Of a stretch of DNA of 64,000 bases, positions 2,416-38,400 are shown piece after piece. Below the pieces are notes generated by a model, which was given only the letters and a program-made list of their open reading frames with translations, had not been told where the DNA came from and did no database searches. A program made the translations under genes and the position numbers. The first letter of the stretch is position 1; the number at the start of each line of letters is the position of its first letter. Source of the stretch: Mytilus edulis (taxonomy: Eukaryota); the NCBI RefSeq assembly GCF_963676685.1, contig NC_092348.1, positions 6,696,001 through 6,760,000 of the forward strand, given 5' to 3'.

Positions 2416-2467
2416 ATGTGGATTAGCATCTTACGATTGTTGCTTCTACTTCTGCACATTTTGGAAG
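2416..2467 (+). CDS. ed-like exon 1: signal peptide MWISILRLLLLLLHILE
   Basis: Hydrophobic leader, donor AAG|gtgaga, phase 1 matches exon 2 (V-VIGASWEQ). Confidence 0.8.
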
Positions 2468-11400: not shown

Positions 11401-14400
11401 ATTTGGCAATTTTAATTTTAAGGCTATCCAGCACCAACATATGAATGGAGAAAAGTTGAAACCAACCAGTTATTAGCAACAGAAACTTCACGACTTATAA
11501 TTAATGGAGTCACGTTACAAGATAATGGCAACTATTCCTGTACACCTAAAAACATGATGGGGAGGGGAGGCTCAAGTACAGTCCCTGTGGTTGTCAATGG
11601 TGAGTACTTGTAATATAATCATAGTATTTCAAATTCACATCCTATATATATATATTCCTAGTAGTTAAAGTTTGTAAACTTTCGTTTTGGTAAATTTAAT
11701 TTGTTAAGTATAAACCACTTCCATCTCCACATATATGTTTTCATTGTTTTAATGAATATATATGATTGATTTTTTTTAAACCATCAATTTGCAATGTTTG
11801 ATACTTGTTTTTAAAATCTGAAATCTTTTTCTTTTCTTAAATAAAATGGAGTTATTTCCCATTGATTAGCAATAACATTCAATTTAAACAATTTTTCAAT
11901 GAGAAATTGTCTTAATATTTTATGTATTTTTTTTTTCTCCTCAGAAAAACCAACATATGTAGGTGTTCATAAAGACAAAGATACTATATACAACAACAGA
12001 ACAGGTTATTGGTTACAGTGTAAAGTAAGAGGACGTCCAGAACCATTAATTCAGTGGTATAAAAACGGCAAACCTTTGGATACGTCGGGGAAATTATATA
12101 GATTAACCACTACTGTTCTACCAGTCGACACATTCAGTTTCCTTGTCACTAGTCAAGTTTATTTACAAGGTAATATTCATATAGTTTATAATGAGGTAAT
12201 ATTCTTATAATTTATAATTGGGGAATTTAAGTTGCAGAAAGTTCATGGATTACTTCCCTTTACAATAGATTTAAGGAAAATATTTATGCATGTGTAAAAT
12301 GAGCTTTGTTGTTCTTTTCCTGTTCAAGACATGATAAGGAACCTTTGAAGGAAGTTGTAAATCTTCTTTCTCATTTGATTACCAATAATTGCAAATCATT
12401 GTATTACAAGGATATGATATTATCTTTTATTATTTTTGAAATAAAGGTTTCCTTTTCAATGTTGATTTTATTTTTCTATCAAATTAGGTCATGGCATTAT
12501 GTTTCCTCCCAGCAGGGGAAGGTGAAAGTTCAAAAGTTTATACTGTAGATTCTAGTTAACCTACTCTTGTTTTAATATAAGTGCCATAAATTTGAATATA
12601 TGCAGTTTAAATGATTAGAAATCTCTACTTTTCATTAAAAATTACTTTCGGAGTAATATAAATTAACAAGATTTTTCATAATTGCCAATGAGACAACTAC
12701 CCACCAATGAGAAAAATATATGATTTTGTCATGGTTGTTTGGGAGTTATCCGAGTCTGACTTGTTTATTTATATATTGTTGTTATTTGTAGGAAGTGATC
12801 GTGTTGGCACAACCTCCCCACAGATCTCTGATGTAGCTAGTTATATTTGTAAAGAAACCACGTCAAACATTAATCATACAACACAACTATTTATATACTG
12901 TAAGTATAACACTTCAATGGTGGATTCAGGGTTGTTGTTACATGGAAACACATATACATGGGACACATGTTAACTTAGCATTAATTTTATAAATCTGCTC
13001 TAAAGTATCAAGCATACCTGACATTCAATATAAGCTTCTCCTTTCAAGTAAAACTAAAGAACCGTTGTGAGAATGCTCACGCCCACACATGATAAAAGTT
13101 TCAAAGTTGCATGAAATTCTGTTGAGTGGATTCAGAGGAGTTGCAAATGAGAACTGTTGCAGTAGTATATAATGGTCAAAAGTTTAATTTGATATTTTAC
13201 ATCCCCCTCCTCCCCCAGCCATAATTTCACAAAGTGTGTGAGTATTATATATTACCGCCAACCATAACTTTAAAAAGTTTGTGTTTTTTTGTAGTTCCCC
13301 CAACTATAACTCCCGATGAGAAGGAAGCATCCATTGCTGGGGGTACAGCTCAGTTGAAATGTTTTGGAGAGGGATATCCTGTACCAAACTTTGTCTGGAA
13401 GAGGAACAATGCTGTGATTAGTTCTGGAGGGAGACTTACAATTCATCAAACCAAAGTTATAAGTGTAACGAGATCTGAAAGCATTCTACAGATAGATAGA
13501 ATTGTTGGTCAAGATTTCGGACCTTATTCGTGTGAGATGTCCAATCAGTTTGGGAAAACAACTAAAACCATCACTTTAACAGTCAAAAGTAAGTTGGTAA
13601 TTTTAGTTTAAATGTTTTCAGCTGCTATTTTAGATATTAGATATTGAAGCTTCTCTTTATTGTAATAACTAGAATAGATTTTTTTTTAAATCAGGATGGA
13701 CCAGATCTGTCGATTTCCCATAAAAACAGGAGTGTTCTTTGTATCTTTTTTTTATGATTATTGAAAAATCAAATTCTTTTTGACTGTAACATAATTGTAA
13801 AGGGAATATGAATGTTTTGAAGAAACAATTGTAAATATGGTACCCGATATTTCCATTGTAGCCCCTGTTAATGCACAATAAATTTTATTCGATATGCTGT
13901 TGGATACACAACAATAAATTATACTGGCGAGTTTTGATGAGAATAGCATGAGATATTATCCATTAATGGATAAATGTTTTTATTTTGTTGACAGAACAGA
14001 CTTTTTTTGTAGATGAGAAAAGTTCAGCATGAACACTTTTAATACTAACTGCTATTTTGAAATCTTTTTTTTTTTATTCAGTATTTTTCCAACATTTGCA
14101 TTTTTTTTCCCTTTTTCTCAGCATGCTTAAATTTCCATTGTCTAATATCCACATCTTTACAGCATTCCTGCTAAATTTATTCAAGAATTCTTAGAGCTTT
14201 TATTCCTTTGCTTGAAGCTGAGATCAGCAGTAAGAAAGATAACAATGTATATAGATAACATTTAATTTACCCTCATGTGCATGGATTTAGTGCATCTTGT
14301 AAAAAATTTACCTTTCTTTGATTCGCTGTCGTAACTTGTCAGTCATGTAAACAGAGGATTTCGGCAATTTTACATCAATTTATATATAATTGGTGAGTAT

Positions 14401-17400
14401 TATTTTGATCATTTGATTACATGTAAAACTCCTTAACCTGGTCAAGTGTAAGGTGGTGATGGAAATTTACATCTGATTAAATGAGAAAAAAAAGCAGGAT
14501 GTAATGTAATTGAACAAAAATAGTTATATAATAAAGAAAAAAGATAAATGTATAAAAAGCCTAAATAAATATATAATCATCCTAAGAAAACATATTTGTA
14601 ATGTAGAAAAATAAATAAAAGCTTGAACAACTATTTTAACTGTGTCTAAATACATATCAGTTAAAACATTTTTTTTTTAATATTCTTCATATCAAAAACA
14701 TTCTTAATTTATTGATATTGATAAATCATACTTAAAGAAAGTAATTTTATTGTTTTCAGGTAAACCAGAAGCACCTACAAGCTTGTCAAGTCCAAAAAGG
14801 TCATGGGACAAAGTAACATTACGATGGACTCCTGGTTTTAATGGAGGGTCATACCAAGCATTTGTTGTGAAGTACAAAAGTAACCCTCCCAATGCAGGGG
14901 ACCAATCAATTAGAGTTATGCCTGACAATGCTACAGAATTTACTGTTTCCAGTGAGTAAAAGTTGACTGTATTGGTTACAGCATAGATTGCAAATGAGTT
15001 ATCTCCCCTTTAGTGTAAAATATTTAAATTTAATTCATGAATTTATTTGATTATGAAAACTATTTTTGATACAAAAGAGTGAAGACAAACATATTGTTCA
15101 TTATGCCAAACAGTACCATCTGATTTTATTTATTAGTTTTGCAAGTATCTGTTTGAATTGTTGTTCCCCAAAGCCCCTCACAGTTGGAAACATAGAATGT
15201 TGAAACTGAATTTAAAATTAAATTGTTATTCATTCAGAAAATATATTGTTAATGAATAAAGCATATTATAGAATTGATTTCTACTTTTCAGATCTGTTAC
15301 CCAGTACAGCCTATGTTTTCCAAGTTTGTGGATATAACGAGCTAGGAGAAGGAGACTTGTCAGATTCTATCACAATTACAACTAATGGTGAGTAATCTCC
15401 CCTTTTGAATATTTTAGAAAGTGTTAACAATTAGATATCTTCTTTATTATCTATCATTATTTTCTGTATCCATTGTCATGCTTCATGTGAAATAATTAAA
15501 TAAACTGTTGCAATTCCTGGTGTTGCCAAATTTCGATTATTAAGTTTTTTAAACTTGAGAAAAAAAACATTTACATACATTTTCAATATGAATAAACAAA
15601 GAAGGGAGTGAAAAATACCTGCAAATCTTGAATAAGATAGAATTAATAAAGTTGACACTTTGGATATTTTTTTCATAATAAAGATGAACACAAAAAATAA
15701 AAATTTAGCTTTATACACAAATGTATAATAGTATTTGATAAACCATAGGTTAAACAGAAAGATTGCCATTTACACATGTAAATAGATATGCTCGGTATAG
15801 CCTATATTTTATTTTTTATTTCAGGTTATACATTCCCATTTATCAAGGAGACACCAGAGTTTTCTGGTGACAACAAAGAATTAGTCTTAAATCTTGATGT
15901 GAACAGTACCTTTTGTGTGAAGGTCAAGGTCAGCACCAACGGTGGACAGTCGTGGCAAACCTTTACTAATAATGACCTTGAATGTTTTGATGCCAATGTT
16001 GCTAAGATGATCGTGACAACCAATGGAGTAGACAGAATGAATGTTTCCCTCTGTCTTGTAGAGCGTATGGATGTCTGTGGCCAGCCTGTTTCTGTTCGAA
16101 TTAGTAAGTCTCCAAGCACCTAGATCATGTCGGATTTGTATATCTAGAAATAAAGCACCTGGGTCATGTGACAAAAGTTTTTATTAAAAAAAAATGACAT
16201 TTTATACAGATATTTGCATTGATTTTTGAAAAGATACATTTATTCAAAAAAACCATTGCACTTTATTTTATAATTATGAATAAAAAGAAAGAGGTTTAAT
16301 AAAAGCCATTATTCAAATTACACAAACCAACAAAAAAATAATATTTTTTAAAATGATGTGAATTATTGATACTGATAATAATGCATACCATATTTTTGTG
16401 TGCTTTTGTAATCTTATTTTCATTTTAATCAAATAGTTTGTCACATTGCCCAATAGAAATTTTACTTTTAATTGTTATATTTTTTTATATATGTCAATTT
16501 TTGGTGTATCAAACAATTTTTTGGTTTTTAAGTGTTTATCATATTCAATGGTTTTCATTGGATCAAAGGAAATAGAGGACATTTATGTTCAAATCAACTC
16601 CATGAATTTTAGGTGAATGGAATATCTCTGGTGAGAATGAAGATATTTTTTATCCAAGACAGAAAGACACATGTTATTATTCAAGAGAATATATTTGTTA
16701 CTTTAATATTGCTGTATAAAATTCAAAGGGAAATAACTCTGTTTTGCCTAATGTTTATGTCAGGGGGAATAACTCTGTTTTGCCTAATGTTTATGTCAGG
16801 GGAAATAACTCTGTAGTGTTGTGTCATGATACCTTCATCATTATTGCAAGTCTTGAAAATCAATTAAGTTTTTGGCATTTTTATACTCCCAGGAAGTTTT
16901 CTATAAATGTGTCAATTTTGAAATGAATTGAGTCATAAAGTTTTTAAGATAAGAGTGTAGACTCTTAATGACCAATATGTGTTTGATCTTTTTGCTGGAA
17001 TATATTCAGAGCAGACTTCATCACTGTAAATCAAAGAGATGTTATTATTTAGCATGAAAAAAATTCTATGATTCTCCATTTACAATGCAATGTATGGTGT
17101 GCATGTGCATCCACAATCCATATGCATTAAAATAATATGATTTCAATAGAAAGATCAAACTAACTCTTTATTTCAACATACTAACCTAAATTATACATTT
17201 TAGTTGCTTTTTCTCTCTGCATTGATTTCTAAACTTACTAACAGGATGATAAAGGGTATGCTAAGTTGAGGAGAAGGAGAACTTGCTATTGAAAGAATAT
17301 ATTTCAACTTGTTCTTTTATTTGGAGTAAATTGAGTTTAAGAAATTAGTACAAGGTGCTATAAAATGGTTCAGTGGTGTGACAGGGGGATAAGGGTACGA

Positions 17401-20400
17401 AAAATTACCCTTTTACAAAAATAATTGGATATTAATATACTTGCTCATTTAAAGATCATTGCATTGGCATAATCATTCTTAAAGTGCTTAGTAAGCTAAA
17501 TATTACCTGAACAAGATTTGTAGAAAAAGTAAATTATGACTATCGGAAATCAATAGATAAAGTTCATTATGATATAAACATCTTCAAGGGAAAAGATAAG
17601 CATATCTTATATAAGAATAAGGAGATTTTGTTCTCAACATTTATTTTTTTTCTTCTTCATTTTTTCGATACATATTCTGCCAAGTAAGAGTTGAGAAAAG
17701 CATGCTAAAACATAAAGACTAGGAAAAAATGGCCCAAAAAATTTAAATCTAGAGCTAATTCTTTCCTATGCAGACCATCTTTCTGAGCCAAGCCCCTTTT
17801 CTTAACAAAATTTGTTAGCATGGTCATCTTAAGTTTAACTGATAATGATAAATTTTCTCAATTTTAACATGGTCAAACTTAATTTACACATGTTCAATGG
17901 GTCAGTTTCAAAGTAGTGTTTTCTCATGCAGGTGATCATTTTACTACCTGACCATAAATTGTTTATTTTCTGAAAGGAAATAAGATTATAGACCAGATAA
18001 CATACAATAATGGCTCCAGTGTTAAAGTGGAGCGAGAGGCTATTTTTAAATATTTGCCAAAACCAATTTTATTTTCTTTCAATCAATAGTTCATTCAATT
18101 TGTCCGTTGAAATGAAATCCTTCACCTGTGTATTACACACCTTCATTGTACCCATCAAATTTTAATCTGATCAAGCGAAGGCTTTTGGACTCAGTGGTAA
18201 CATCCGCGAATTAAAATGTTGTCCATTGTCCGATCTGAACGATTTTTACAGGATTTGGTGAGATCATGGGGTGAAGTTGACAATTTGTTTCGGTATCAAT
18301 ATCTGATTATTTATAAAATCAAAGTGGATTAGGTAAAAGTCAGTTTTGTTATGTCACATTCACAGCTAAAAAAAAGGGACTGCATTTATTGTTATTGATA
18401 AATAAAATTTTTGGTGAAAGATTTTTCTTTGTATATACATGTATAAAAAAAAATCCCTTATTTGGTGATATTTTTTTTTTTTTTAAAGATGTCCATTTCA
18501 TTACAAAATTTAAATTTAAACCTGGTTAGATAATTATATAACTAATGGATTACCATTTGCACCATAAATTTGTGTAAAAAAATGCCAGAAAAAGTATTAC
18601 ACCTTTACTGGAACTTAAAAAAATAATGAAAACATTCTAAAAACTAGAATTTAACATATGCTGTGAGTAGATAAAGTTCAAAGAGGGAAACCAATATAAA
18701 TTTATTTTCCCTTTGAAGGCCCCTTTATAGTTAACATTACATGTAACAGACATATGGCCTATAGCATTTGATTATTTCATCCCAGGATTATATCAATATT
18801 TATTTTAGGCTTGTGTTTACATCTTGTCAAGTTATATAGTAAAGATACCCATCTTTTGATTACATAAAGAAATCTAAATTACCTGGGAGGGAAAGATTTA
18901 AAATAGGGAGGAAGTCTGATATGAAGGGACATCCCAGTACTTTTCCAAGTGGTATATTTGAAACATTCTGGAAACAAACAAAGCTTGAAAATTTTGATGT
19001 CCCATAATTCAAAAATTTGTATAGTGATAAAAAATCCTTGCATAATTGAATTTTGATAAACTTAAAAGCCAATTAATATCAAACCATATAGTTTCCACAG
19101 ATCAATTATATCAGAATAAAAATAAAAAATTCTTTTTTATGTTTCTATAATTTGATTTTTAGGAGATAAAAATCTTTTTATCATTTGTTCAATGCAATTT
19201 AGAATCTTAATTCTACCCTTATGGGCCTTTGAAATATACATTAATATTTTTATACATGTGGCATGAAATGTCAATTGCCTGTGGAAATTTAAAAGTCAAT
19301 AAATAATTCATTTATGTAAAATGTGAGAAATATGAAACATTTCACATTTTTACTCAAATATCAAATTTTTAATACCTACATCATAAACAATGTCTGACAG
19401 ATTTGCTACCTGTCGAAATTTAATTAGATAATCACCCTCCAAAACAAAATAAACTCAGCTCAAAACGTTTAATTCAATTAACTTTAGGAGAGTCTATTGT
19501 CCTGAATAGGGTTGAAAGGTTACACCTGGGAATCTTTCACTGTTGATTGGGTAGATTTCACTCAACCTTGAAGAGAATTCAGGTCATCTGAATGTAGTGG
19601 AATGGAGTAAATAATTTGTTGAGATTTTGTTTATTAATTAATTTCTGTTGTGTGTTATTTCCCCCTTTTGTGTATTGGATTTTACTTAATTAGTGTGGAA
19701 GTGTTATCCCACCTTGACTAGAATATGTTACCAACTGGAGAAAGGAATACACCATGTTGATTTCATTGCTGAAATAGACAACCATGGTGAAATAGAAGTA
19801 TTTATTCATATTTTCACTGGGAAAATCCTTTCAGTTTTATTAATTTTGTACCTTTGGGATTTAAATGAAAAAGTAATTAAGAATATTAATTTTTGGAGAA
19901 GTGACATTTGAATGGATATGAAGATTTTTGTAACATTTTGTGAAATATTATTGGATACAACAATCAGATGAAGTTTTAATTATTGGATATTTAGCTGAAG
20001 ATAATATCTACAAAACTATTGAATTATTCATCAACACAGAACAAAATGTCAGGTGAGAGAAAATTTCTATCTTTCAAATCAATAAGAAACTTATCATTTT
20101 CATGTTGTGGCATAAAAATATAGGTAAATTACTTATGATATTTAACCTTGTGGATGTTTTTATGAGTCATAAGAGTTCCTTTTGAAAAATAAGCAGTTTA
20201 AAATTGTGAAAAATAAACTGTTCAGCAGGAAACGTGATATGAAAATTCATAACTTCCCCTATTTGTTTTTTGGCTGTAACAGAGACAGTCTCTGGCTGTA
20301 ATAACTAAGACGGGAGTTATTCAAATTGTTCCTCATGTTTAATGAAATGGACTAGCTGGCGTGTCTCTATACATGCATGCTATTTGTGGCCAGAATTGAG

Positions 20401-23400
20401 AGAGACAGGCAATTTTAAGATGCTCGAACCCATTTTTTTTCTTGTTTCAATACAGGGGATGTATCTGTGTGCTTGTCCATTGCATAGGGGAGGAGAGTAA
20501 AGACTCAATAAAGATACCCAATATATGATTTTGTAAGCTAGACATCCATCTAGTCCTATAATATAAGACGCTGCAGGTTCATATCATTTACATTCAACGT
20601 TTTTTATTGGATATTTTTTTTTTACTATCAATGTTGAACTGTTGAGTTGCAGTTCAACATTGATAGTAAAAAAAAAATATCTGATAAAAAACGTTGGATG
20701 TAAATGATATGAACCTACAGCGTCTTATATTATAGGACTATAATCCATTCTTTTATATAACACTCATCAGTTGTTTTCAAATCAAAACAGTTGGAGAAGA
20801 CTTAAAATCGTTAGCGAAAAAAAAAGATGGCTAAATAATTTTAAAAAGAAAATGTTGAAGATGCTACTTTAAATTATAACTTTTTCACTCTAGATGTGAA
20901 AAGTACATTGCTCTAAGAAATTGGACATAATGGTTAATTAGTTGAGTCTAAATATAAAATTGTTACAAAATTAAGAATCGGTCTTGCGTTAAGCTAGAAG
21001 AACATCATATTGAAGATATTAATGTGTCTTAGTTTTCCTGTGGTCTGATGTTCATTCATGTATTAAGGAAATTTGAATTGTTTTTGTATTTTACATTTAA
21101 ATTACATCATTGCCTTTTCCTGATCCTCATTTAATTGACACAACTTTGAGATTAAGGATAAGTGTGAACATAATCTATAAGGATAATCTGCATTGGAATG
21201 TTAAAAAGGGGGGATAATTCCTAAGATAATCCTGAATTGTGATAAACATTATGTCATTCTATTGTACATGTTTAACATCCAAACAATAGACTTATAAGGA
21301 TAAGCTAGATATAAATTAATCTTAGTCAAAAATGAAAATTGGAAACTTTAACCCTTTTTTGTAGAAAAAAATAAAGGGAGCTTTGAAATTATGTGACTGT
21401 CAAAATAGCCATAAGTGCATCAATAGCGTGTACATTCAATATCTAGAGCTAAATATCATGCTTTTAAATTGAATTATGCTTTTTTTGGTTGGGGGAGTTC
21501 AGTCACAGGTATTTGAATGCTTTGTCAATAAGGAACCTGTGTTAATAACATGGTTTATCTCAGTCCTTTCCTTGTTTGTGACTAGCATCTATATCTGCTT
21601 TTAGATATCTTGTCCAGTATCTAAAAGGTTGTATCAACACCCAAGAGTTATTTACTTTGAGTTCTTTTCTTTTTTCTTATCACAATTCTAATTGTCTGTA
21701 CAGTAAAGAATGGACTTGATGAATCTTATGATAAACAAGAAATCAGTTTATCTAGACCGTTTTTGCTGGAGGATATTTTTTGTACCATAACGGGATAATC
21801 CCATTTTCTCTGTCTGACTCATGAGTAATTAATGAAAGCTTAATCATATTGTGTCATCATATTGTGTCATCCTCGTGTCATCATAACACATGTTCCGATA
21901 ATATCTAATGGAGTCATTTTTTGAAAATTTAATTGATATCATTGATTTAAAATCATTACTAAGTACTATTACCTTGAATATAAATAATAAGTTTAATTAT
22001 GCATTATAGTTTTCTCGATTTTCCAAATGTTTGGATCAAGGATACCAAAGTTATAAGTGTTTATTAAAAGAAGATAAAATATAGTATTGACCACTGTTTT
22101 TATATGTACTATAGCTCCAATAAAATACCACATTAAATCAGTTGGTGTTGGCTACGTGACTCAGGAGAGGAATAGTGTGAGAAAGTAGAAAATATCCTGG
22201 ATTCAGAATGATTAAGTGTTGGTTGCTTAACATCCAGTGGCAAATATTTCATGCATATTTAGGACCAGGACATCTTGGATTAAGAATCAACAATGAATAC
22301 TATTGTAATGTCTGACCCACTATTTTCTCAGAGACAGAGTTAATAGCATAAATTCTAATTGGAATACTTGCATCAAATTTGAACAGTTCAGATCAGATAA
22401 AATTGTACAATGCAATTTATTTGGGTAAATTATTTTAAAACATAGAAATGGTAGATGCTCCCTCAACCTCTGTATTAGAAAAGTGAATTTTAAATTATCC
22501 GACAGATTATCTTAATTGGTTAAACTCCAAAGAAAACAATGTTGTCTTATCCTAAATATCAGAGAAGACCATGATAAATATCACTTCATAAATAGTGGGG
22601 GGTTTACAAGTGGCAGAACAAGGGAATGTCAATATTGACCCTTTACACAAATACCTTCAGTACTAACCAAAAACTCTCACTTTTAATTAAGAGTAGATAA
22701 CGGTCAGTGTCTTTAGTTTGTGAAATATTTACATTGGGGTGGAATTGTAATGAGAAATAAAGAGATTGATACAAACTTGTGATAATGAAGGGTGAAAGTT
22801 TTAATTGGTTTTACCTCTCCAGGTCCACTTATGTTCTAGGTCAGAGTAAACTGGTCACTTGTGTTCACTATCGCTAAATGCTTTACATGGAATGGCTGAC
22901 AGTAAACTGGACTCTTGTGTTCACTATCCTTACAAGCTTTAGATGGAATGGTATACCAGTTAAGAGTCAGAGAAGGAAAGTGAAGTTTTCTGATAAAATG
23001 CATCCAGATACTACAGAAGAAATTCTTTCAAGTGGTTTTCTAGATAACTTATTGAAATCTTATCTTTTTTAGCAGTTGTCAAGTTTCTGCTTCTATTTGG
23101 TTAAATTGGTTTTCCAGACTTTACTAATTGGCACATTTCACTTATTCAAATCATTCATTAGCACTCTACTTTCTCAATTGGCTATCAGTTACTTTGTTTT
23201 TAAGATTTTCTTGTTTAGTTACTGAAGTTTGGATTGTAATCCCAATGGCAATATTTGTTCATTTATCCCAATGGCAATATTTGTTCATTTATTCCCGATT
23301 TCTCACATTTCTGGGTTACCATGGTTACTGCACGAGTATTCAACATTATGTCCAATGGCCTATAAGTCCTGTCCAGTTGGATTTGTTTCAGAAACTCTTT

Positions 23401-26400
23401 ATTTTATTGCATTGCTGCATAATTGCTTGAGTGTTATATAATTAGCATCAATAGACAAGTCTTGAACATAGAAGTGACTTTTAGTAGACATTAATAGTTA
23501 GCCAGCTTACAATAATGTGAAAAAAATTGACCATGTGTTTAGACAATTTTAAGCCACTGTCAGCATGGTCAGCATACAGTAATGTAGGGGTTGAATTTTC
23601 AAACCAATGACCTGGAATAGGTTAACTCAACCCATGATAAATTGTCCTTTATACCAAGTTATGATATGCATATATGTATTATGTATTACAACATACTGAC
23701 GGCAGGTGCTTGTTCAGCATACTCCACCCCTTTCCTTTCTTTTACAGTTTTATCCCCTAGCCTCAGTTTCAATATGTTCCGTCAGGTTGTGTGAAAGTTA
23801 TAACATTGACAATAGGAATACAATCTTTATGAATAATGTTGATGGTCTGCCAAACTTTCACTTATAAAAATATATTGTATATTTTGAACCTTTATGAATA
23901 TGAAAATTTAAGATAAATTGAAATTAAACTAGGACCAGATTTTCCCTATTGACAGACAAGTTTACTAATATTACCAGATAATAGTAAAGTTGTATTTGTT
24001 AGATTTGTTTCTTTGTTGGAATAACTAGACTCTGGTTCTTGCATTCATTGATATTATACAGAACAATGGCTTATGAATGGTATTGTACAATGTATTAATT
24101 TCAGCTTATCAAATTCCTTTTAATTTAAATTTTAAAGATTTTCTAGCTTGTAAATACGTGCATGTTAAAGCAGAGCATACAGTTCATGTAATATACATAG
24201 CTTTGATTTAAAAGTATAACGCTATATGTAATGTTAAATGCAAAAATAATCTGAAACCATACATAGTGTTAGTACATGTCTTGCCTACCAATTCCTTCGA
24301 GCTAATATCTATATGTATATCTAAGGAAAGTTTTTTCTTTAAGATTTGAAAATATTGTTACATTATTATATCTAAGGTAAATGGTAGGTAAAATCTGAAC
24401 ATTTAATTTGTGTAACCTAGATTTATTTGTTCCGTTTGAAGTCATGTGTTATTTTGTACCAGATAAAATCTGAAATCAGGTAAAATGTTAGTCATTACCG
24501 ATCGGTCGAACTGTTTGAACATGACTATATAATTATATACAAATCTATAATACTTTGTTCGTAAGGTCGAGGTTTAATAAAATCCCCCTTTGTCGATTTA
24601 AAAACCACTTTGCTGTAAAGAAAAAACATCAACAAACAGGCTTTAACAATAGGTATTCCACAATAAACATTCTTATAGCGTTCCTTAAAATAGAATGTGG
24701 TATTATACAGAGATGTATGCCACCTAGTGAAGCAGAAAGTATTGTACTTATTGTACGTAAAGGGATTAGGTTTCTTTAACATGTCCGATATTCAGTATCC
24801 CGTCAACAGGACTAAATGACTTGATCGATCTCCTTTATAAGATTTGTATTCTGATGTTTTCACATTTAAAAATCAGAAATGCATTAGAATTTGAATTTCC
24901 CATTATCAAATCTTGATTTGGTTGTATTTAAGTTGAAACTTAATAAACCATGCTTTGTTATGTGTTATGCCTACAATGCTATGATAAACCAAGGGATATT
25001 TTACATTAAGTAAAAAAAGGTGGTAGAAATCTTAGGATAGGAAGGCTATCAAGGGGGAGTATTATAAAACTTTTCTGTAAAAAAACTGTTAAATATAATT
25101 ACGGAAGAGACAAAATGTGGTTAATAAATTCATGCTATGAAAGCTAGTCTAAAGCAGAAGAAAAATTGATTTTTTTCTGTTCTTGATCAACACTGAGGCC
25201 TTCAACACAGAATAAAAGCTTGCACCTGATAGAAACTTCACAACCAGCAATGATTTAGTGAATTTCTTTATGCTACATCTACCCGTTGGTTAATTTAAAC
25301 ATATTATAGACTATAATGGTCAAATAATCAAACGAAAAACATCATATAGTATTAATATGGTATGGATTGCGTGGTTGATTTGAGAGAACAGTCTGTCATT
25401 AATTGCCTCAGTACATATACCTTTAGTGTGACAAGCAACAATATAATCCTAGTATCATGCAACACTTTTTAAAAAATCAATTTGTTCATTTGTAGATAAT
25501 GCTATCACATTTTCCAATCATCTTGACTGAAATTAGATATTCATTTTGTTTTTTACTGAAATCAATCGATTTTTGGGTGTGAACAAAAGTGAATAGGTAT
25601 TACGTGACTTGATCTGACTCCTTCATGTATATATCTGTTTCTAATCTTTAACAAATAAGGAAGCTTTGTTTTATCAGTCTCAACAAATGTACTCTTCTGT
25701 GTTAAATACAAGGATAGGAAAAAATTGAAAGTACAAAAATTTTGATTCTTTATTTATATTGGGCTTAAAAACAAATTCGTGAGAGGGGGATTAATGTTCC
25801 CATAGAACACAGTTAGGACAATTTCAAGATGATTGTTTGTCATGATTAGGTACAGGCACATTTCACATGAGAACCCATCTTTACAGTGGCCTTGAAACCT
25901 CACTTTATTAGAAGTATCCCAGTATATTTTGTTTCATAGCATTGATAAATTGTAACAAACAAATTTAAAATCTGATGCAGTTTAAAAGTTGTGCTTTACA
26001 TACTGTTCAATAAGCTTAAAGGGGCACTAGCTGTCAAATTCATTGTTACCGATTTGACTCAAATTTTCATATTTGGTTTATAACAAGGTAAAACATTTAT
26101 CCAAACTATCAAAAGTCTAAAATAAACAGTTTACAGAGCATGGGGTAGATAATATATAGGTTCGTTTCGTGTGTATTTTAGTCCAGTCGCCATCTAATTA
26201 ACTATCGATTTGACCTCAGATGACCATATAAACGATGTAAACAAAAGTAAAGATACGAATAGATTAAACCAACACGTGCAATTGGATTTTTATAGGTCTG
26301 TTTGATTTTATTTTATAGATTAAAAATAGATGTTTCTCATTGTTTTTAACCATATACGAATGATTTTATGTGCATCGAATTAGTAATCAAATGATTTACC

Positions 26401-29400
26401 GTAGTTTCACTTTCATTGTTGACATTCTTTTTCTTTAAATAACCAGTACACGTACAATGCATGCGTTGTCAATCTCTAGCTAGGGGTTAACTTGAAGTTC
26501 ACATGAATACCGGTTAGAATGATGATGACATTTTCACTTGCAAGTGAATCAGTCAAAAATTATGTTTAATCGCTTATTTCAACAAAATTAAAGGAAATTG
26601 ATTGCTAAAAGCAAATTATTATTTGATTATTCCAATTTGATTAATGATTGATCTAAAAAAAAATCATACTTTATTTTTTTATATATATCGTAGCTAGTGC
26701 TCCTTTAAGGTTTCAACATCTTTGTGATATTTTTTTCAGTTGTGGGAAAGGATTACAGAGTTATAAAATTGAAAAACATGAGTCTGATGCCCACTTTGTT
26801 TGAGATTTGTGATCAACTTACATGAGTTTTATACTCAGTTTTATATAGATAATAAATCCAGGGGCTTGTCACATGAGGATTTTACAGCCATCCTACTACA
26901 CTGTAAACATAAACAGAAGGTGTTAAGTGAATTATTACGACTTTGTAATGAAAAGGTCTGACATTTTATTACCCTTTGTATGGAATAAGGTATACACATT
27001 AACATATCTTACATTGGGAAAACTTGCTGTATGATTTAAAGGTTCAAATAAGGTCCACCTAAGGTTTATATTTTACTAAAAAAGATAACAAAATTAATAC
27101 AACAAGGACAAATGCAGAGCTCAAATGTAAAAGTGTGAAAATTATAAACAGATAAGGTTACATTTCATTCATCTTTGGAATAAGGGCATTTATATAATTT
27201 TTGATGAAATAAAACTGTATTTTTGTCACTTCTCTCCTGGAGCAAAATTATTTTTCAGTGTGTTTATCTTCCAATTTTTATAGAAACTTTAGTTATGCCA
27301 ATGTGTGGCCATGTGTGGGGAAAAGGTTAATGTTCTTCAATCTTCAGACACTTACATGTATATGCCATCTTTGAATGTCTCTTATTAATTAGCTTTTCCT
27401 GTAAATGAGATTTATATAAAGGCTTGTTTCTCTGTATGCATGTATGTAATATTATAAATTAAAAGTTCTTTTCGCCTTGTATTGAATATAAATGTTAATT
27501 GAATGTGACTTGAGAAAGGAGCTGTGTATTGAGGAAGCTATAATGACCTACAAGAATTTGCCTGCTGTGTTTATAATTACTGAACACATGTTTAACATGA
27601 AAGCTGGATTCACTTTCTCTAGGGGTCCTGTAAAGGGAAAACAATTTGTCAGAGAAGGTTAGACGTGAATCTGTTAATTATTGATGAAGAACGAATAAGA
27701 TGTAGGTGGAACCCAAACAAACACAGCATTTGATGCCTATTATATGTATACTGTTTACATGTCTAAACATCTTATATCATCTAATGTATTATAAGTAATG
27801 ACCTCTTTGATATAGTGCCAGCTCATATAATCATGTAGAGATGACTCAAACTTATCGTGATATTTTATGAAGTAACAGTATATATATATATATAAAAGAG
27901 TTGGTTTACTTTAAATTAGACTATCAGGCAATATAATTGAAATCTGTGGCATTTTACAAGGATATACAAAGTATAAGTTTCACACACTTTTTCCATCAAA
28001 ATTCAAAATGAAGCACGAGTTGACAGTTTCTTATTAAAAACTAGAGAAGGTGATAATAGATTCTATTGAACTTTTTTGTTGACATTGTGTTTTCATTATC
28101 GACTGCTAATGAAGTTAACATTCAGACAAATATTGACCTATAGATTTATCCATTTGGTTTGACATGGGGGATCCATAAATAACCATACTTTTAAATTATT
28201 TGCCCTGGGTCATACATTAGACATGTGTACCTTGTACTTTAAATTGATTTATTGAATGATATTAAGTCCCTCTGTAGAGCCCCAGAAAAAAAATAACACA
28301 TCATGCATGAACCATTTCATGGGAACAACATATTTTTGTGTAAAATGGAAGTAACCTTAGCATCTAATATTGAGAAAAGGATGTGACTTATTTGATAGAA
28401 ATGGCGTACAACACTAAACATGCTGTCACTGATTTAGGTAAGCATCCAACATTGTGTTTTTTATGTCCTTTGTTTGAAAACATGTGACAAAGGATGTGAT
28501 TCATTCAACAGTTTGTGGTTTTGTTTCCATTCTGAAAAACCCAGATTAAATTGATTACCATTTGATTTTTAACAAAGTAGCAGTTTATGGCAATACCTTA
28601 ATATAACATGTATTTTATTGTCTTTTTGCTGTTTGTGTCTGCATCATCATGTCAATCAGACAAAGATTATCTTTCTGTCTACGTACAATATTCATTCCTC
28701 AGGTTGACTCATTAACAATTTACTGAATGACCAGAAGGTCGGACCATTGATATAATGGCTTATTATATCTTTGGTCTGACTGTTCATATTATACATTACT
28801 TTAAATAGATGCACTAATGTATTTTGATTGTTGTAATGGGCACTGCTCTTTCAATAAGGTATATTGCACATCTTTTATTATTCTTGACAAGGGGCTTAGG
28901 GTTTGAATCTGCAGATCACCAACAATCAAGGCATAATATTGCAAGGAGGATACTTATTAGATTTAACCAATAATAAGTAAAGAAGTGCTATCTGCTACAA
29001 TTGACTTTTTATTTTGGAGAAGGGGAGAGGTGATATATATTGTCCTGTAGACTTGCTACATGTCCCTTCCTAATTATTATTATTTTTTCAATTTTGCCCC
29101 TTTAATAATTTTACTGCTATAACTAGGAGATTACAATTATACTGACATCTGCAGGAGGAAAAAGGCAATCAGTAGGCTGGCACTTATCAGTAAACATATA
29201 AATTAGTAAGAGAGAAATATTAGAAAGGGAATTGTAGCAAGTCTAATTGTCCTGGTATTTTATTTTTGTTTACTTTGTTTTGGTTAAGCCTTGGTTGGCT
29301 GGTCTTCTTAAAACTTGTGTTCTTAGTTATACTCATGATACTTAGAGAGTCTGCCAATGACATATCTTGACTGTCAACTGGCAGTAAATTGTATCATCTA

Positions 29401-32400
29401 GCTAACCCCCTTTTTCCCTGTTCCCTATTAAATTTCACATTCACTGTAGAAGTTAGTGCACTCAATGCATATTTAAAGTTCAAAAGAAAGAATGTTCCCA
29501 CAATCACCAACATAATGGCAGTATGATTGTCACCATTTAATGACTGCCAATTTGATTTTCCAATTTATGTGGAACAAAAAAAAAGATGGCGACGTGTTGT
29601 GGTCGTCCTCCGGACAGTGGTCAGAATTCCAATTATAATGACGATTCAACAAGTCCAACCTTTTCAGAATTAGTGTCAGTAAGACTTAATAGCAATTTAG
29701 AAGGTAAAACAAACGGAACATTACCAAAAACTGATGCAATTGATGTATTGAATTCATCTCAATGTGACCAATGGTTCGAGTCCCAAAATGTAAACAATGA
29801 CATTAGCCTGTCCAATTCACAAGATAGTATTACATTCAGTCAAGACTCATACATTCCATCGCAGCAAACTATAATGTACTTAGATAAGGTTTTAGATGGC
29901 CTTCCCAGAGAAAAATACATTGACATGATTGTGCATACTTTAAAAGGCAACGAATCATTAGTAACTTGGTACCGAAATATTCTGCTATCACGGGCGGGCG
30001 AGATAGAAGGGTGTCCAAAAGGGAAACTTTGCAATAGAAAAACCACAAATAAATCTAGTAGCATACAAAAATACGCCAAGGATTGTTATATTCTACAAAT
30101 GTTTACTGAAGGCGACGCCTCTGAGATTGACTCTGTTTTCAGTAGGTCGGTTAATTCAACAAGTGACAATTTGCATAATGATACCATTTGTGAACAAAAC
30201 CCCGTTAACCAGGTTGATATTAACAGTACATTGCAGTTGCTAATTGAAAGAGTCAATGGGTTAGAAAATATTTTAAAAAGTAAAGACGGGATTGAAAAGA
30301 AATTAAAAGCAAAAATTGAAGAACTTGAAAATGTTATTGACGACAACAAACGTCAATTTGAGTTACTAAAAGCTGAAATTACTCCAAAAATAGTGAAATT
30401 TGAATCGGAACTCAAGACCATGAGTTGGTTAGCATCTGACGTGGGCGAGTTCAATTTTATGGCACATAGTAGTAAAATGAAAGAAATCGAATCGGAAATC
30501 AAACAAAATCGTATCGCAATTACGTCGTTACAAAAAACATTCAGAAAAAATCAACCCGTATTGAACCCCAAAATACTAGTAAATAAACAACCGTCAACAA
30601 AAGGTACGAGTGAACACATGTCTACACCTATCTGTCCCGTTAATACGAATAAATCCACTGTGTCAAATGTGTCAATCGATTCATTGATTACAACCGAAAT
30701 TGATCGTATGATGTATCAGATCGACCCCCAACAATCCGATCCTATAATACCTGGCGCTTACGACTCTGTAGATTTTCTAGAACATTGCGGTAAACGCCCA
30801 ACAGAAATCATTGAAACGGACAATAATGCTGATTTAATTACGCCATCTTGCGGAAAGGAAATTGCAAAAGCAACGAACACGAACATAAAATGCGATTCAT
30901 ATAGAGACAAACTTTTAGAAGGCATAAACGAAAAAGCTAACTGCGTAGTTACTAAATTGGCCAAACCATTAGAACCCGCTTTTCAAATTCCCGTACGTAT
31001 CAATGGTAGTCATCATGATCCCAAACCAGCAAATGAGAACTTTACCGGTGTAAGCCGTAAACGCACGTCCAGATTTTACATTACAAACATAGATCCTTCC
31101 TCGAGTAAGGAAGGCCTATTGAGCTATGCGAAACAACGGGGTGTTAATATTACGCACGTCATACTATTCAAACCACGCAAAGGAAGAATTTCCGGTAGAA
31201 TAAACGTTACGATGGAATCCAAAGAATTACTCCAAAACAGTGAGTTTTGGCCTAACAACATTATCTGTCGACCTTGGTATAATAATCGTGCATGGAACGA
31301 TCGCATTAACAACGAGAATTCAACGGAGCCACACCACTATCAAGATGGCTCTTAGTTACATTCATGTACATTCTCGATATTTAATAACTATAATCATGCT
31401 TTCTCTAGTGACTTGGAATGTACGTGGTATCATGTCATCATCAGTCTGCTTATCTGAACTCTTTAAGTATACGAATTGTGACATTGCCGTATTATCGGAG
31501 CATAAGTTATTTAACCACTCTCTGCAATTTCTTAACACATTAGATAATAATTACCATAGTTTAGGTATAGCGGATACAAGTGTTAATATTGAAACCAGTA
31601 AATGTGGAAAAGGTGGCGTTGCAATTATGTACAAGAAAACATTGAAGTTCAACATAAAACCAATTAACTGTCCCGTCTCCGAAAGAATACTAGGAATTGA
31701 AATACAGTGTAACGAAAACTACTCTATATTTGTTTTTTCGGTCTACTTACCCGCAGACAGTAATATTCAGAATTACAAATATGAAATGAACATTGTTGAA
31801 GATTATGTCAGCAACTTTTCAAAATTTGGTCCTGTAATTGTAGCCGGTGATTTCAACACTAGTTGCAGAGTAACCGACCTTGGTCGAACCAATGTGAATA
31901 AATCAATCGTATTTTCAGATTTCATGTTAAGGAATAACATTATCCCGGTTAATGCAAGCACGCTTAGAGATGCTTCATCATTTACGTACATTCCAACTCG
32001 AACTTTACTGGATTACTTTTTGGTTAGCGAGGAATTAGCTGGTGACGTAATTTCCTGTGAAAATATTCCCGAAGGAACATTAAGTCTTACTTCGGATCAC
32101 CTACCTGTTTTCTTGAAACTGAGCATACCGTATGTTTGCAATTCAACAAACAGTTGCAATAATGTTTGGCCGTCATGGCGCAAAGCATCGGAAAGCAGTC
32201 TTGGTGCATACAACGAACTTACCAATAAAATAGCAGATCAGCTCTTGGACTTGCCGTTATGTAATTTGTCCGACTTAGATACACTAGCTTGCAAACTTAC
32301 CGATAAATTGAAAGACTGTGCAAACGAAACAATACCGTCGGGAAGCTTTAATCCCAAAACTAAGCCGTATTGGTCAGATGAAGTTAAACAAGCACATACA

Positions 32401-35400
32401 GCTGAACGTTTGGCTCGTAGGAAATGGATTAACCAAGGCAGACCGCGAGGGGCGAACTTTCCTTCCTACGTCGAATACAAATCTGCGAAAAACGAATTCC
32501 GGAATCGTCAACGTTTTGCCTATAATGCCTACATGGACAATACTTACCGTGAAATCGACGAAGCAGCTGAGTGTGATGTCAGACTCTTTTGGCGCTTAAT
32601 ATCACGTCAGAAAAACCGTAAAACCAACCAAATTTCAGAAATACTACATCACAACCGAAAATGTAAATCTCCAGAAGATATTTCAAATGCTTTTGCTGAC
32701 TTTTATGCAGACGTTTATACACCAACTGAAAACTCAAAATTTGACAATGATTTCAAGGTTCATGTGACTGAATTCGTAGATCGCACACTCGAGTCATGTG
32801 CAACAAATAATGGCCTCCTCCCAGGAGGTGAAATAACCTTGTACGAAATCGAAACAGTGGTTAGAAACCTCAAGCTACGAAAGGCACCAGGATATGACAA
32901 GCTGCAAAACGAACATGTGAGATACAGCGGTAAAAAACTACATACAGTCATTCTCCGTATTTTTAATGCAGTGATTAGATTCGGTCGTAGTCCGTTGTGT
33001 TGGAAGCATGGCTTATTGATTCCATTGTTTAAAGGTAATGGAAAGTCCAAACAAGCGCCCGAAAACTACCGTCCTATATCGCTATTGCCAATAATGTATA
33101 AGCTGTTCGAAACTATATTAAAGAAGCGACTATTAACCTCTTTGCAAAATGATTTGTTTCCAAATTTACAACAACAAGGCTTTCTTAATGGACTTAGCTG
33201 TATCACTGCCTCCTTCAACTTCCAAGAAACTATATATTACCTTTTAGAATTAGGATGCAAATTGTATGTTGCGTTTTTGGACAGTTCCCGTGCGTTTGAT
33301 ACGGTGTGGCATAGCGGCCTAATTTATAAATTGTACCAACTTGGGATAAATAGTAAAGCTTTACAAGTGATTTCTGATTGCTATAGTGATATAACAAGTG
33401 CCGTTTACGTCAATGAACACGTATCAGTACCCTTCAAAGTCCGACAGGGCGTCAGACAAGGCGGTGTACTATCGACCATCCTGTACTTGGTGTACATTAA
33501 TGACCTTTTAAATGAATTAGAATTAGTTGGAACCGCAAATATTTCAAATATTCGTACAAGTAATCCATCATTTGCTGACGATGTAGTTTGCATTGGTACT
33601 TCGCCACAAAGACTCCAAAATATGTTGAATTGTGCGTACGATTATTCACTTAAATGGAGATTTGAGTTCAATCCTCTGAAATCTGTTATCTTAGGCTACA
33701 GAACTGAACTAGATCTTGTATTCAATCTAGGTGATAAAAGTGTTAACATTTCAACTGAGACCAAGCATCTTGGAATATTAAGGACGGTTGACTTATCACC
33801 GAGCACAGATATTCAGCATTCATGTAGGAAGGGTCGCAATGCTTATTTTGCTATAGCCGGTACTGGATCTTGTTTGTTAAATCCGTTAACTGTATGTGGC
33901 CTCTACAACAAAATTGTTATACCTGTGGTACTTTACGGATGTGAGCTATGGAACGGGATAAAACCAAAAGACTTAAGGTGTCTTGAAACTTTCCAACATT
34001 TCATTGTTAAACATATTCAAGGCTTTCCGAAACGAACACGGTCAGATATGTGTGAATCTATGACCAACCTCGAGAGACTACCTATACTAGTAGAAAAACG
34101 GAAATTGATGTTCCTGTATAAACTTTGTGAAATGAAGGCCCAATCACTTACCAAACAAATTTTCATTTATAGACTTTTTCAGTATTTCGGAGATACCAGT
34201 AGGAAACAACATGGATTCATCCCAGATGTAACTAACATTTTATCAAAATATTCACTTTTGAATTTTTTGAATAGCTATATGTTTACCGGCTGTTTCCCAA
34301 CCAAATTACAGTGGAAAAACATTGTCAATGGTGCGATTAACCAGCATGAGAAACATCGAAAGGAAGAGCGAATGCGTAGTGACAACGATTTTACACGATT
34401 TCTAAGATTGTCTGAGAACAATGGCTATGATTTTATATGGCAATATGCAAAATATACTGGCAGACTTCGAACCGCTAAACATGTAGCTAAACTTTGGTCT
34501 ACTCCCCCGACTAGCGGAAACTGCAACTTGTGTGGACACTTTGTTCAAGATACACTTTACCATCAAATTACAATGTGCACAGAACTTCAAACACAAAGAC
34601 ACTTGCTATATAAAAGATTATCAGAAATGACTAGTGACAATTTCTTATACACACTGCTCTCAAAATCAGACGAGTACGTGTCCTGTTTTCTGCTTGGCAA
34701 TCACGAAGAAGCTCTATTGGACTTTTTAACACCAGAGCATTGTTTAGACGTCCTTAACGAAGGATTTTCCTATCTTACATACTGTAGACTGTAAATACTT
34801 TTGAATTCAAAATATTTAGTGACATTAATTCTATTACCTAATTTCAAAACTTTGTAATTGTACATAATTTATATGCATTTTGTCAATCTCCTTTAGGAGG
34901 AAATAAAGTATGATGAAGTTAGGAAAAGATTAAGGTTCGTATGACTAATCAACTAGAAATGTATACCAAGTTCAAAATTAGTGATAATTTACCTGTCATA
35001 AAATTCATTATAAAATATATCAGGTACATCAAACCAAAAAAATTGTTATTTAAAAAATGTATATATTTTGTGGTTGACTATATGATCCCTTTATGTATAT
35101 GTAAAAATTAAATGAAAATTATCAAATACATGGGAATGTCAAAAAGGACAATATTTTCCTTTGAAATTCAACATTAAAACACAATAATGTGTTTCAAATG
35201 ATCTCAGTTTTCATTTAAACAACCTTCAGGTTAGGAACAATGAAATTTGATATTGATTTTCCATAAATTACCATACAACAATAGTATCTGGTCCATACCC
35301 TATTGTCTGGAGACCCAGTGACCCTAGGGTGTTTTGAAGACCATCAATAAAGCATTTGGTATCGATTTATTGGATGACAATTGATTTTTATCCACCATTT

Positions 35401-38400
35401 TATGATAGATCTCTAAGCTGAAGCTTTTTGCCTTCAATCAAATAGTCATTGAGAGTCCACTTTAGTTTGTCTTTGTTCTACTGACTGTATTGCTGGTTTT
35501 TGTATTTTTCTAAACAAATTATGATAAAGACATTAAGAGAAGTGCTATAGGATAGTTGTATTTTTAAAAGAAGTAAAAGCTAACAATCTGACTAAAAGCC
35601 AGCTGTCACTATCTTGTACTACAAATGCAAGTAAATAGAGTGGGACTAGTGTTAGTCTAAAAACAAATGGCTAAACATCATAAACATGACTTGGATAATT
35701 CTGTTTATTAAAAAAAAAACAGTTATAAGTTTGATACATAACATTTGCTAATGCTTTTACACCAAGTGATGCCAATTTTGTAAGCGTTTGTAAGTCTCAT
35801 ATACTACTGGTTTTCATGTGGGATTAAGTTAAACCAGTCAGTAACAAGAATATTATAAATATTGTGATGAAGAATTTGTAAAGTAACACTGGTATCATGT
35901 TGATAACTCATTTCGTTTTGAGTTGTTTATAATTTTGTTTTATGGTAAATACATTTTTGATAGTGATTAATGACAAAGCTAACTTTTTTTGACATTCAGG
36001 GTAAATTGTAATTGCATTTTATCCCATGGCTTATTAAAGTAAAAAGCACAGAAAACCTTACACTTCAAAAAACATAAAACCATTCAATATAATTGTAGCT
36101 ATTTATGTAATTATATATTGCCTTTTACCTACCATTTAACTTTGATGTATAGAATAACATAAGAAAATATTTAATATGACATACATTTGTGTAGCTGACA
36201 GTTTACATTGTTTGTCTTGTCTTTTGGGTATAATAATGGCCTCCAGAAATATCTGGTTTATATCACAATATACAGGGGATGGGAATGGGTTATACTCTTA
36301 CAATGTGTTTGGAAGATTTAATTTCAGTTTTTCCCACCTGAAAAGCTCCTAATGACTATGTTCCATATAATGGATACAAATGCAACATGTTTGCATAACA
36401 AATTAATTAGAATCTTCTAAAAAACTGTATTTCTCCAGACTCTTATATTATATAAATCATCTATGCACTTAGACCCTCTTTATCAAACTCGTATATTAGA
36501 GTGAAGAAGGTCCTTAAAAAGTCAATGATCAGATAAGAAAAAACATATGTTGTCTTGGCACTCAGTCAACTTTGTAGAAAATGTCCTGTAGGAGTCAAAC
36601 ATTATATTATTGTCAAGATTTTATAAAACTGTTTGAAGAAGGTCTTATGTCAAAGGAATATAATATATGTTTTATACTTGAAATACAAAAGATTTATTTA
36701 TAGTTTGTGAAATTAAATTATCATGGGGTGGTTCAAGCAAAGCACACTCCTACACTAGTGTTATATAAAATTATTATCATCTGTCTTAGTATAAATCCAG
36801 TTATATACTAGTCACAGTGCTGATGATAGTTAGGAATGTAGGTTTACATGGTGGCTTGCATTTTCTGAGTACAAGCAAGATAAATAACATGGTTTCTTTA
36901 TATTATATGTTTTACTTCTTTATTTAGGTTTCTCATTTAAAGTTAACATCACTTGTACTTTGCTGGCAAAACGGCTGGTATTGAACAACCAAAAAATCTG
37001 AAGCAAACCGTGCCTTTGTGCACAATAATGGTCTAATAATATCATTATTAAACACTCACTGTAGAAGGCTTATCTTAGGCTTGAGGAATAAAGTCAACTT
37101 TTAAGGAAAGGATGCCCCATTGCACTTAAGTCCAATTGCAAAGGAACAAAGGATCATTTGATATGTAAAGTGTATAAATAAAGAAACAAAAGGCCAGGAG
37201 TGCAAATTGATCTTTCATTGATCACTGTTTGTTACAAAGACTGTTTTGTTAACAGTTATTTTTAAATAATTTATATCAAATATCATCTTATTTATATTTT
37301 CAGGTTCAAGCAGTACTCCTGATCTGACTGAAACAGAAGTTATTATAATTGGGTGTGTGTGTGCAGCTATATTGGTAGCCCTTCTAACGGTACTAGTGTG
37401 CATTATTTGTCGAAGAAGAAATTTAGGTAAGATACTTTGACAATACAAACATTTATGTTTACAACTCAAATTCTTTAACATCACAATAAAAAAAAAAGTA
37501 TTTTCACAAAAACAACTAAGCAAGAAAAGTTTATTGATACAAAAAGACTTTCTAGAATCTTAAGAATTTACACTTTTACTCGTGTTGAAAGAATTAAAAC
37601 AAAACACTCACACCCTTACTTGACAAATCAGTGAGAAAGGAATTTTGTTATGATATCTGTGTGTTGACCAAATGACAGGACAACTAAGAAGGAATGGATT
37701 TCTGTCATTTCAGCTGACAGTCATCATTTACTTATAACTCATTTGTCCTATCCCACACTACATGTACTATCATACCCAATTTTGAATTAGTTTTGGTCTT
37801 TTCAATAAGAAAATTGTTAAATTTCATTTTGGGAACAGTTCGATTCTTTGCAATTTGTGATGGATTTTTTTCCCCTCTTGTGGAAACCCATATCTCCTTT
37901 TCTTCATGCATATTATAACACATCTGTGTTTTGTTGTTTTGCTGGATTGCTGTCTTATTGGCACATTCCTGGTAACCACACATCATGTAAAATAACTGAC
38001 AACATCAGCATATCTGTCATTACTGTAGAAAACTGGTATTGTCTATTTCAAATCATCTTAAAACATAAAGGGATTCTGTGCATATACACATGGTATTGTT
38101 TATGATAGTATAGTAATGTGTATAATTGACATAGATATGTACATAATGTATCAAATGTGTATAATTGACATAGATATGTACATAATGTATCAAATGTGTA
38201 TAATTGACTTAGATATGTACACAATGTATCAAATGTGTATAATTGACATAGATATGTACACAATGTATCAAATGTGTATAATTGACATAGATATGTACAC
38301 AATGTAATAAATGTCATGTTGCATCATGATTTGTAGATGAAAAGTTTCATCTGTACTGAGGAATGTGTGATATAATATCACAAGACTTTCATTTTTTATA

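Follow-up and report, generated by a model that had tools for sequence, protein, structure and literature searches.

The Mytilus edulis gene of an Echinoid-like adhesion receptor gives rise to a second transcript, which starts at a first exon of its own (termed exon A) inside intron 14 and lacks the entire ectodomain. The gene lies on the forward strand of a 64,000-nucleotide stretch of contig NC_092348.1 (positions 6,696,001 to 6,760,000; hereafter the window, to which all coordinates refer), where its 22 exons span 2416-44063. In the full receptor, an outer part of immunoglobulin (Ig) and fibronectin type III (FN3) domains is followed by a transmembrane (TM) helix and a tail with the C-terminal motif KKVIYEVVV. 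The transcript without ectodomain is real, abundant and sample-dependent: exon A joins the TM exon in frame, and the same TM helix and tail are kept. This RNA probably encodes a small membrane adaptor that carries the receptor tail, free of signal peptide and adhesion domain.

RNA from exon A inside intron 14

RNA sequencing (RNA-seq) data were examined in six of 24 listed runs, which come from four studies: X21, X22 and X23 (one study) and X24 as raw reads, with 6-18% of each raw run sampled, and X1 and X3 as contigs from two further studies. The regions 19850-39849 and 14700-20699 were covered, and the joints considered are 15 of 28. The joint 20052->37304 (GT..AG) is present in five of the six runs and three of the four studies. 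It is carried in X21 by 38 reads with 19 starts, compared to 37 for the joint that follows (37426->38590), and also by contigs of X1 and X3, the second organism label included, at depths of 57/235 and 45/301, which are a poor measure of level. Loose ends of the TM exon at 20054 comprise 37 reads in X21, 22 in X22 and 26 in X23, all on one strand. X24 has no reads on the joint versus 22 downstream, and covers exon A at a depth of about 3 with no listed joint. The short:long junction counts are 37:8, 22:7, 26:4 and 0:6 for X21, X22, X23 and X24, respectively.

Read depth is 10-31 over 19500-20099, on one strand, and drops to 0 over 18500-19499 in every one of the four raw runs, with molecule ends clustering at 19568 (6) and 19572 (7 and 14). 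Upstream of this pile there are no loose ends among those shown, which go down to three reads, and no joint from exon 14 to exon A is among the listed joints of the four raw runs. The missing cover upstream, the missing incoming joint and the pile of ends together indicate that the 7-nucleotide (nt) mini-exon 20046-20052, proposed in an earlier note made from the sequence, forms the coding end of a longer first exon, some 480 nt in length. Exon A consists of a long 5' untranslated region (UTR) with nine upstream ATGs, followed by Met-Ser and one base, and is single-copy in the genome assembly G000. These data support exon A as a separate first exon within intron 14 that is unfed by upstream exons, as judged by RNA-seq read ends rather than by cap analysis of gene expression (CAGE). 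The earlier note had suggested that intron 14 yields a TM-plus-tail isoform via 20046-20052, and both the joint and the matching short proteins described below bear this out; the intron is not limited to the junction 16103->37304.

A separate paralog was considered as the source of the short RNA and rejected, as G000 contains only one other match to the TM exon, a broken duplicate of 600 nt that lacks the tail. This duplicate (L006:4829-5564; G000:C5 near 2.704 Mb, minus strand) is a 94% copy of window 36782-37397, comprising the intron end and part of the TM exon, fused to a copy of 37913-38042. As a separate observation, read depth over exon 14 (15825-16103) climbs from 1 to 8 in X21 and from 3 to 9 in X22, with exons 12-13 at 0-1. 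This rise, together with the Crassostrea gigas RefSeq proteins that start at a Met within the same exon, may reflect 3' bias, duplicates or a third start.

A second internal start, termed exon B (28401-28437), is likely real, as a tissue-restricted or minor first exon. Two protein records, P0044 of M. coruscus, found in both NCBI and Logan, and the M. edulis gene model P0013, have the same 12-residue start and then enter the TM exon. The region is single-copy in G000, and X21 shows weak sense cover of about 1,000 bases in bin 27854-28520. The 15 of 28 joints shown do not include 28437->37304, so that the short isoform proposed earlier from exon B holds at the level of protein records and lacks a junction among these joints.

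The sequence features from which both exons had been predicted were also remeasured. Intron 14 is the outlier described, at 21,200 nt compared to 277-3,752 nt for the other 20 coding introns of the gene, and about 15 kb remain after the removal of a long interspersed nuclear element (LINE) and a repeat resembling a miniature inverted-repeat transposable element (MITE), which together take up about 6 kb. The two ATG-donor mini-exons both have phase 1, in agreement with the TM exon, and an in-frame stop upstream. Candidate phase-1 stretches of the form ATG..GTRAG number three in the intron versus 6.8+/-2.9 in shuffles, and the subset with strong donors two versus 0.65+/-0.73. AATAAA occurs at a density of 1.46 per kb in the intron, and another copy follows the TM exon at a distance of 59 nt. 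No motif in intron 14 is clearly above background by sequence, and it is RNA together with cross-species records that decides. A third ATG-donor candidate (31212-31239) was rejected, since it lies inside the LINE and has no joint among those listed. The LINE and the MITE were rejected as promoter sources as well, because exon A and the exon B region are single-copy and outside both elements.

The predicted short protein and its relatives

The coding sequence is predicted to start at ATG 20046, which has an AAA context and an in-frame stop 17 codons upstream. The nine upstream open reading frames (uORFs) in the 478-nt 5' UTR are each short (1-19 codons). The predicted product has 14 outside residues, a TM helix of 24 residues and the tail, amounting to about 169-229 residues across the tail variants seen, and no signal peptide is predicted. 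The net charge changes from -3 ahead of the TM helix to +4 behind it, and each of the 22 short proteins examined shows a shift of the same sign. Given this charge difference and the positive-inside rule, the TM helix would insert N-out/C-in (type III), with the tail in the cytoplasm as in the full receptor.

No Pfam domain was found in the tail. Among the aligned tails, Tyr-x-Asn is present in 25 of 26, an ESGYxT-like box in 21 of 26 and a hydrophobic end (-YEVVV/-YEVIV) in all 26. The tail also possesses PxxP, and its C-terminal end is a putative PDZ-type motif, as far as the sequence tells. The TM helix is strongly conserved. A juxtamembrane Cys is present near the inner end of the TM helix, and the Mytilus CxxC is not shared by every relative.

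A search for shorter relatives comprising TM helix and tail retrieved 12 proteins among 321 candidates, nine of which begin with Met-Ser and then enter the TM exon directly. The oyster short form P0056 belongs to the same 90% cluster as the C. gigas RefSeq proteins and is found on 41 Logan contigs. In this protein, MSG precedes QSQK, where the long form P0062 of the same cluster has ASIR before QSQK. The swap in Mytilus is of the same kind, with MSG (short) or VRIS (long) before SSST, and has phase 1 as in oyster. Judging from these protein records, conservation of the short form covers at minimum the mussels and the oysters, lineages that split more than 400 million years ago. No exon A start is among the RefSeq Mytilus isoforms listed (15 of 59 and 15 of 16 members of the two clusters), and uncommented short forms are present in the automated annotations of M. 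coruscus and Littorina.

A profile search on the tail gave 46 matches among 4,222 candidates. Short forms were found in Littorina (4), Arion (2), Elysia and Paralvinella, in addition to gastropod-like and annelid-like records; the gastropod and annelid proteins start at the aligned point, mostly with M-[SAG]-[DE]. Long forms were found in Sinanodonta, Ylistrum, Pinctada, Patella, Liolophura, Tubulanus, Owenia and Lingula (59 matches, 10 looked up by name), and no arthropod is identifiable among the matches to the tail profile. Because the same-species pairs of long and short forms at hand are limited to mussels and oysters, the gastropod and annelid proteins are look-alikes that are suggestive only.

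Several candidates were removed from this set. The C. gigas RefSeq proteins with "MSGKECF" starts (P0040, P0055, P0065) begin at a Met internal to the last ectodomain exon, as seen in P0062, and the cephalopod short proteins (P0071, P0072, P0076) begin at a Met that lies within the long form. Genomic single-exon fragments were dropped, e.g. P0038, P0075, P0077, P0079, P0081-84, P0086-92, P0094 and P0097-100. Two side observations concern the same comparison. First, in C. gigas RefSeq P0040 and P0065 the last ectodomain exon is separated from the TM exon by 9 inserted residues, which probably stem from a cassette of the corresponding intron. Second, all forms found in Littorina, Arion, Elysia and snails like them (P0066-P0069, P0073, P0074, P0078, P0080, P0085, P0116) lack the ectodomain, and their best long match, among the matches, is usually from Patella; in these snails the part with TM helix and tail may belong to a gene of its own or to a model that was split.

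Proposed mechanism and rival explanations

In the proposed mechanism, a promoter directly upstream of 19568 would drive exon A, and the resulting RNA would be spliced onto the TM exon at 37304, skipping the ectodomain exons. Translation would begin at ATG 20046, and the TM helix itself would bring the protein into the membrane. The tail, thus placed at the membrane without cell contact, would recruit the junction partners of the full-length receptor or compete for them, and the rarer exon B would likely feed the same TM acceptor. In the available excerpts on fly Echinoid (Ed), the PDZ motif of the tail binds Bazooka and Canoe and the C-terminus binds Salvador (PMC3172166, PMC8854406), and the tail is required for the assembly of actomyosin cables (PMC3172166).

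Several points weigh against this picture. The start of exon A was placed by ordinary RNA-seq read ends and not by CAGE, with five entries of loose ends outside those shown. The three runs in which the short form dominates come from one study without tissue labels, X24 has no short junction, and sampling of each raw run reached 6-18% only. The short protein is predicted from RNA and sequence, and the nine upstream ATGs may make its translation poor. Short proteins outside mussels and oysters may come from gene models that were split or from genes of their own, every functional step is carried over from Drosophila, and the orthology to fly Echinoid is putative, with three clusters tied in the Atlas comparison given below.

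In the main rival reading, the short form is instead mainly dominant-negative, binding the full-length receptor via the TM helix or soaking up tail partners in co-expressing cells, which we regard as doubtful. The anatomy would be the same, both junctions occur in X21-X23, the conservation of the TM helix agrees with such pairing, and the need for the Ed tail in cable assembly points the same way in the parts of that study at hand (PMC3172166). However, the short form outnumbers the long one 3- to 6-fold in X21-X23, so that a stand-alone role in other cells fits at least equally well, and bulk RNA cannot reveal co-expression in a single cell.

It is unlikely that the short RNA, although real, is regulatory or poorly translated and gives no functional protein. 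The upstream ATGs in the 478-nt UTR would suit such a role, as would a protein predicted from RNA; but mussels and oysters share the coding end of Met-Ser plus one base, its frame and its junction, none of the uORFs is long, and AAA is the context of the main ATG.

The 5' part of intron 14 had been proposed in the earlier note to supply ends for a secreted decoy of seven Ig domains and FN3, through intronic polyadenylation or a stop-containing exon. The elements exist as sequence: beyond the exon 14 donor there is a read-through stop with AATAAA, both less than 50 nt from the donor, and the acceptors at 17204/17245 are followed by early stops. RNA use of these elements is a different matter. 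Bin 16100-16299 holds 48, 42, 24 and 36 bases in the four raw runs, i.e. six per read for 8, 7, 4 and 6 reads, and all of the approximately 25 reads therefore stop at 16105. This position fits splicing to the TM exon, because intron 14 and the TM exon both start with GT, and the loose ends shown at the end of exon 14 lead to the TM exon. Read-through past 16105 thus amounts to 0 of about 25 reads in four shallowly sampled raw runs, which gives an upper bound of about 11% if the reads are independent, some of them being duplicates; the joints 16103->17204 and 16103->17245 are absent from the same runs. Moreover, the M. coruscus model P0015 (a protein record only) runs past the exon 14 donor in another frame, and the stop therefore seems unconserved, and no TM-less isoform is among the RefSeq isoforms listed, all of which have the TM helix. 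Sparse intronic reads at 16500-18299 in X23 would agree with a decoy, as would the small number of tissues sampled and isoform listings that extend to 15 of 59 members in one cluster and 15 of 16 in the other. In the runs examined, the secreted half has no support at a detectable level, and a decoy that the locus yields in addition is improbable; the routes via 16104-16154 and 17204/17245 were dropped for want of reads. The idea of a locus expressed as two separate halves therefore stands in part, with a long receptor, a short form in the membrane and no supported secreted ectodomain.

That exon A is a cassette exon of the full-length transcript, as two automated models (P0015, P0103) place it and as the AG at 19572-19573 would allow, is very improbable, given the absence of a joint or loose end into the exon, reads that reach 19568 beyond this AG, an exon of about 480 nt with stops in the coding frame, and a depth several times that of exon 14.

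The receptor gene and known systems

The gene model translates into 1128 residues that are identical at 1128 of 1128 positions to the M. edulis RefSeq protein P0011, the record name of which is "DSCAM-like isoform X1". Pfam assigns Ig_3 in seven stretches and one fn3 at 703-791; a single TM helix follows. We name the gene Echinoid-like for its likeness in architecture to fly Echinoid and for two Mytilus records named echinoid/ED. Since the Atlas comparison ties the Echinoid, Dscam-like and nephrin clusters at 0.97, the label is kept at this level. The first 15 coding introns (2468-38589) have phase 1 throughout, and every upstream exon can therefore join the TM exon in frame. As a separate observation, isoform X11 of M. 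trossulus in RefSeq (P0101) joins exon 11 directly to the TM exon (window 13588 -> 37304), dropping the FN3 and juxtamembrane exons.

The tail exons (38990-43327) are alternatively spliced in the RefSeq isoforms of four Mytilus species, and the intron 41818-43294 is of the GC-AG type. A likely alternative last exon uses a donor (44039/44040) within the last exon, right after the KK codons. Models with an exon of this type occur in Mytilus, another bivalve and gastropods, and in one cephalopod-like and one annelid-like record; Lingula has the same alternative-tail region (P0147, P0148), and the motif H-x-PPGH-x-C-x-LPCC is common to most of these models. The alternative C-terminus would likely replace the PDZ-type end, with about 430 residues in the window gene and 200-750 across models.

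Table 1. Features of the Echinoid-like locus, in window coordinates
Feature	Position	Strand	Basis or status
Coding exons 1-14: signal peptide, seven Ig, FN3, juxtamembrane domain	2416..16103	+	model identical to P0011
Intron 14, GT-AG, phase 1, carrying internal first exon(s)	16104..37303	+	21,200 nt; loose ends linking exon 14 to the TM exon: 7 reads in X22, 5 in X24
Proposed read-through end (stop 16121-16123, AATAAA 16149)	16104..16154	+	unused in runs examined
Proposed stop-containing acceptors 17204/17245	17204..17260	+	no joint seen
Alternative first exon A, ~480 nt	19568..20052	+	joint 20052->37304; read ends 19568/19572; single-copy
High-copy short repeat, MITE-like	about 26016..26708	not set	read depth and loose ends
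Coding part of likely alternative first exon B: Met, 11 residues, one base	28401..28437	+	P0044, P0013
LINE insertion	29556..34794	+	open reading frames (ORFs) 29556-31355 (ORF1, 599 residues) and 31204-34794 (ORF2, 1196 residues, endonuclease and reverse transcriptase)
TM exon, common to long and short forms	37304..37426	+	RNA joints and gene model
Seven tail exons, several alternatively spliced, C-terminal motif KKVIYEVVV	38590..44063	+	gene model, RefSeq isoforms, RNA
Likely alternative last exon, donor 44039/44040	49154..50434	+	gene models P0013, P0103, P0107, P0110, P0116, P0122, P0123; splice sites

Among the repeats of the window, the LINE is rich in GC and CpG relative to its background and is apparently a recent insertion. 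Short high-copy repeats lie at 20551-20740, 22209-22272 and 26016-26708, the first of which is a 190-nt palindrome, and a tandem array with a 51-nt unit is located downstream of the gene at 52713-53675.

LAT-type adaptors (LAT, LIME1, SCIMP, PAG) have a short outside stub, no signal peptide, a Cys at the inner end of the TM helix and a disordered Tyr-rich tail. The mussel short form resembles them, in sequence only, in its short stub, lack of a signal peptide, juxtamembrane Cys and disordered tail with Tyr motifs, but these adaptors are non-homologous and have genes of their own, and with an Atlas similarity below 0.9 the likeness is only a lead. The 5' half proposed earlier resembles sFlt-1, a soluble receptor decoy made by intronic polyadenylation, which has no counterpart seen for the mussel gene in the runs examined. 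Gamma-neurexin has its own signal peptide, belongs to an unrelated family and keeps much of its stalk, whereas the mussel short form has 14 outside residues and no signal peptide. It is nonetheless alike as an isoform of an adhesion receptor without ectodomain: in the available text, mouse Nrxn1-gamma arises from an extra promoter, lacks folded ectodomains and keeps the TM helix, tail and PDZ motif (PMC10084454), and the short nrx-1 of C. elegans is sufficient for presynaptic maturation (10.1101/2022.09.27.509791). PTPROt (PTP-oc), a truncated PTPRO that together with gamma-neurexin is nearest in mechanism, is described as having an intronic promoter and an 8-residue outside stub (PMC8645932). 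PTPROt carries a phosphatase domain, whereas the mussel tail has no Pfam domain and its host gene is an adhesion receptor of the Ig superfamily.

Drosophila Echinoid shares with the mussel receptor seven Ig domains, FN3, a TM helix and a tail with a PDZ-type C-terminal motif (PMC3172166, PMC8854406, 10.64898/2026.04.22.720164), and the excerpts of the fly literature examined mention no natural ectodomain-less Ed isoform. A literature search that left out most subscription papers found no description of a short isoform for an echinoid-type gene; PMC10776947 was set aside, as "echinoid" there means sea urchin. An ectodomain-less isoform from an internal promoter is thus known in kind from PTPROt and gamma-neurexin, with no description found for the echinoid-type family.

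Tentatively, the Echinoid-like locus may have had two products since before the split of molluscs and annelids: an adhesion receptor and a LAT-like, contact-independent adaptor, which would be the main product in some tissues. In this scenario, a conserved last-exon switch (49154-50434) would swap the PDZ end, and the adaptor half may be a gene of its own in some snails. For annotation, gene-level counts would blend two products whose short:long ratio ranges from about 6:1 to 0. As far as the available portions of the fly studies show, Echinoid-type receptors tie cell contact to the control of junctions, EGFR and Hippo, and the separability of adhesion and tail signalling has been argued from artificial truncations (PMC12377819, PMC3172166). 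A natural, conserved form without ectodomain would offer a direct test, in which one promoter or ATG could be removed while the receptor stays intact.

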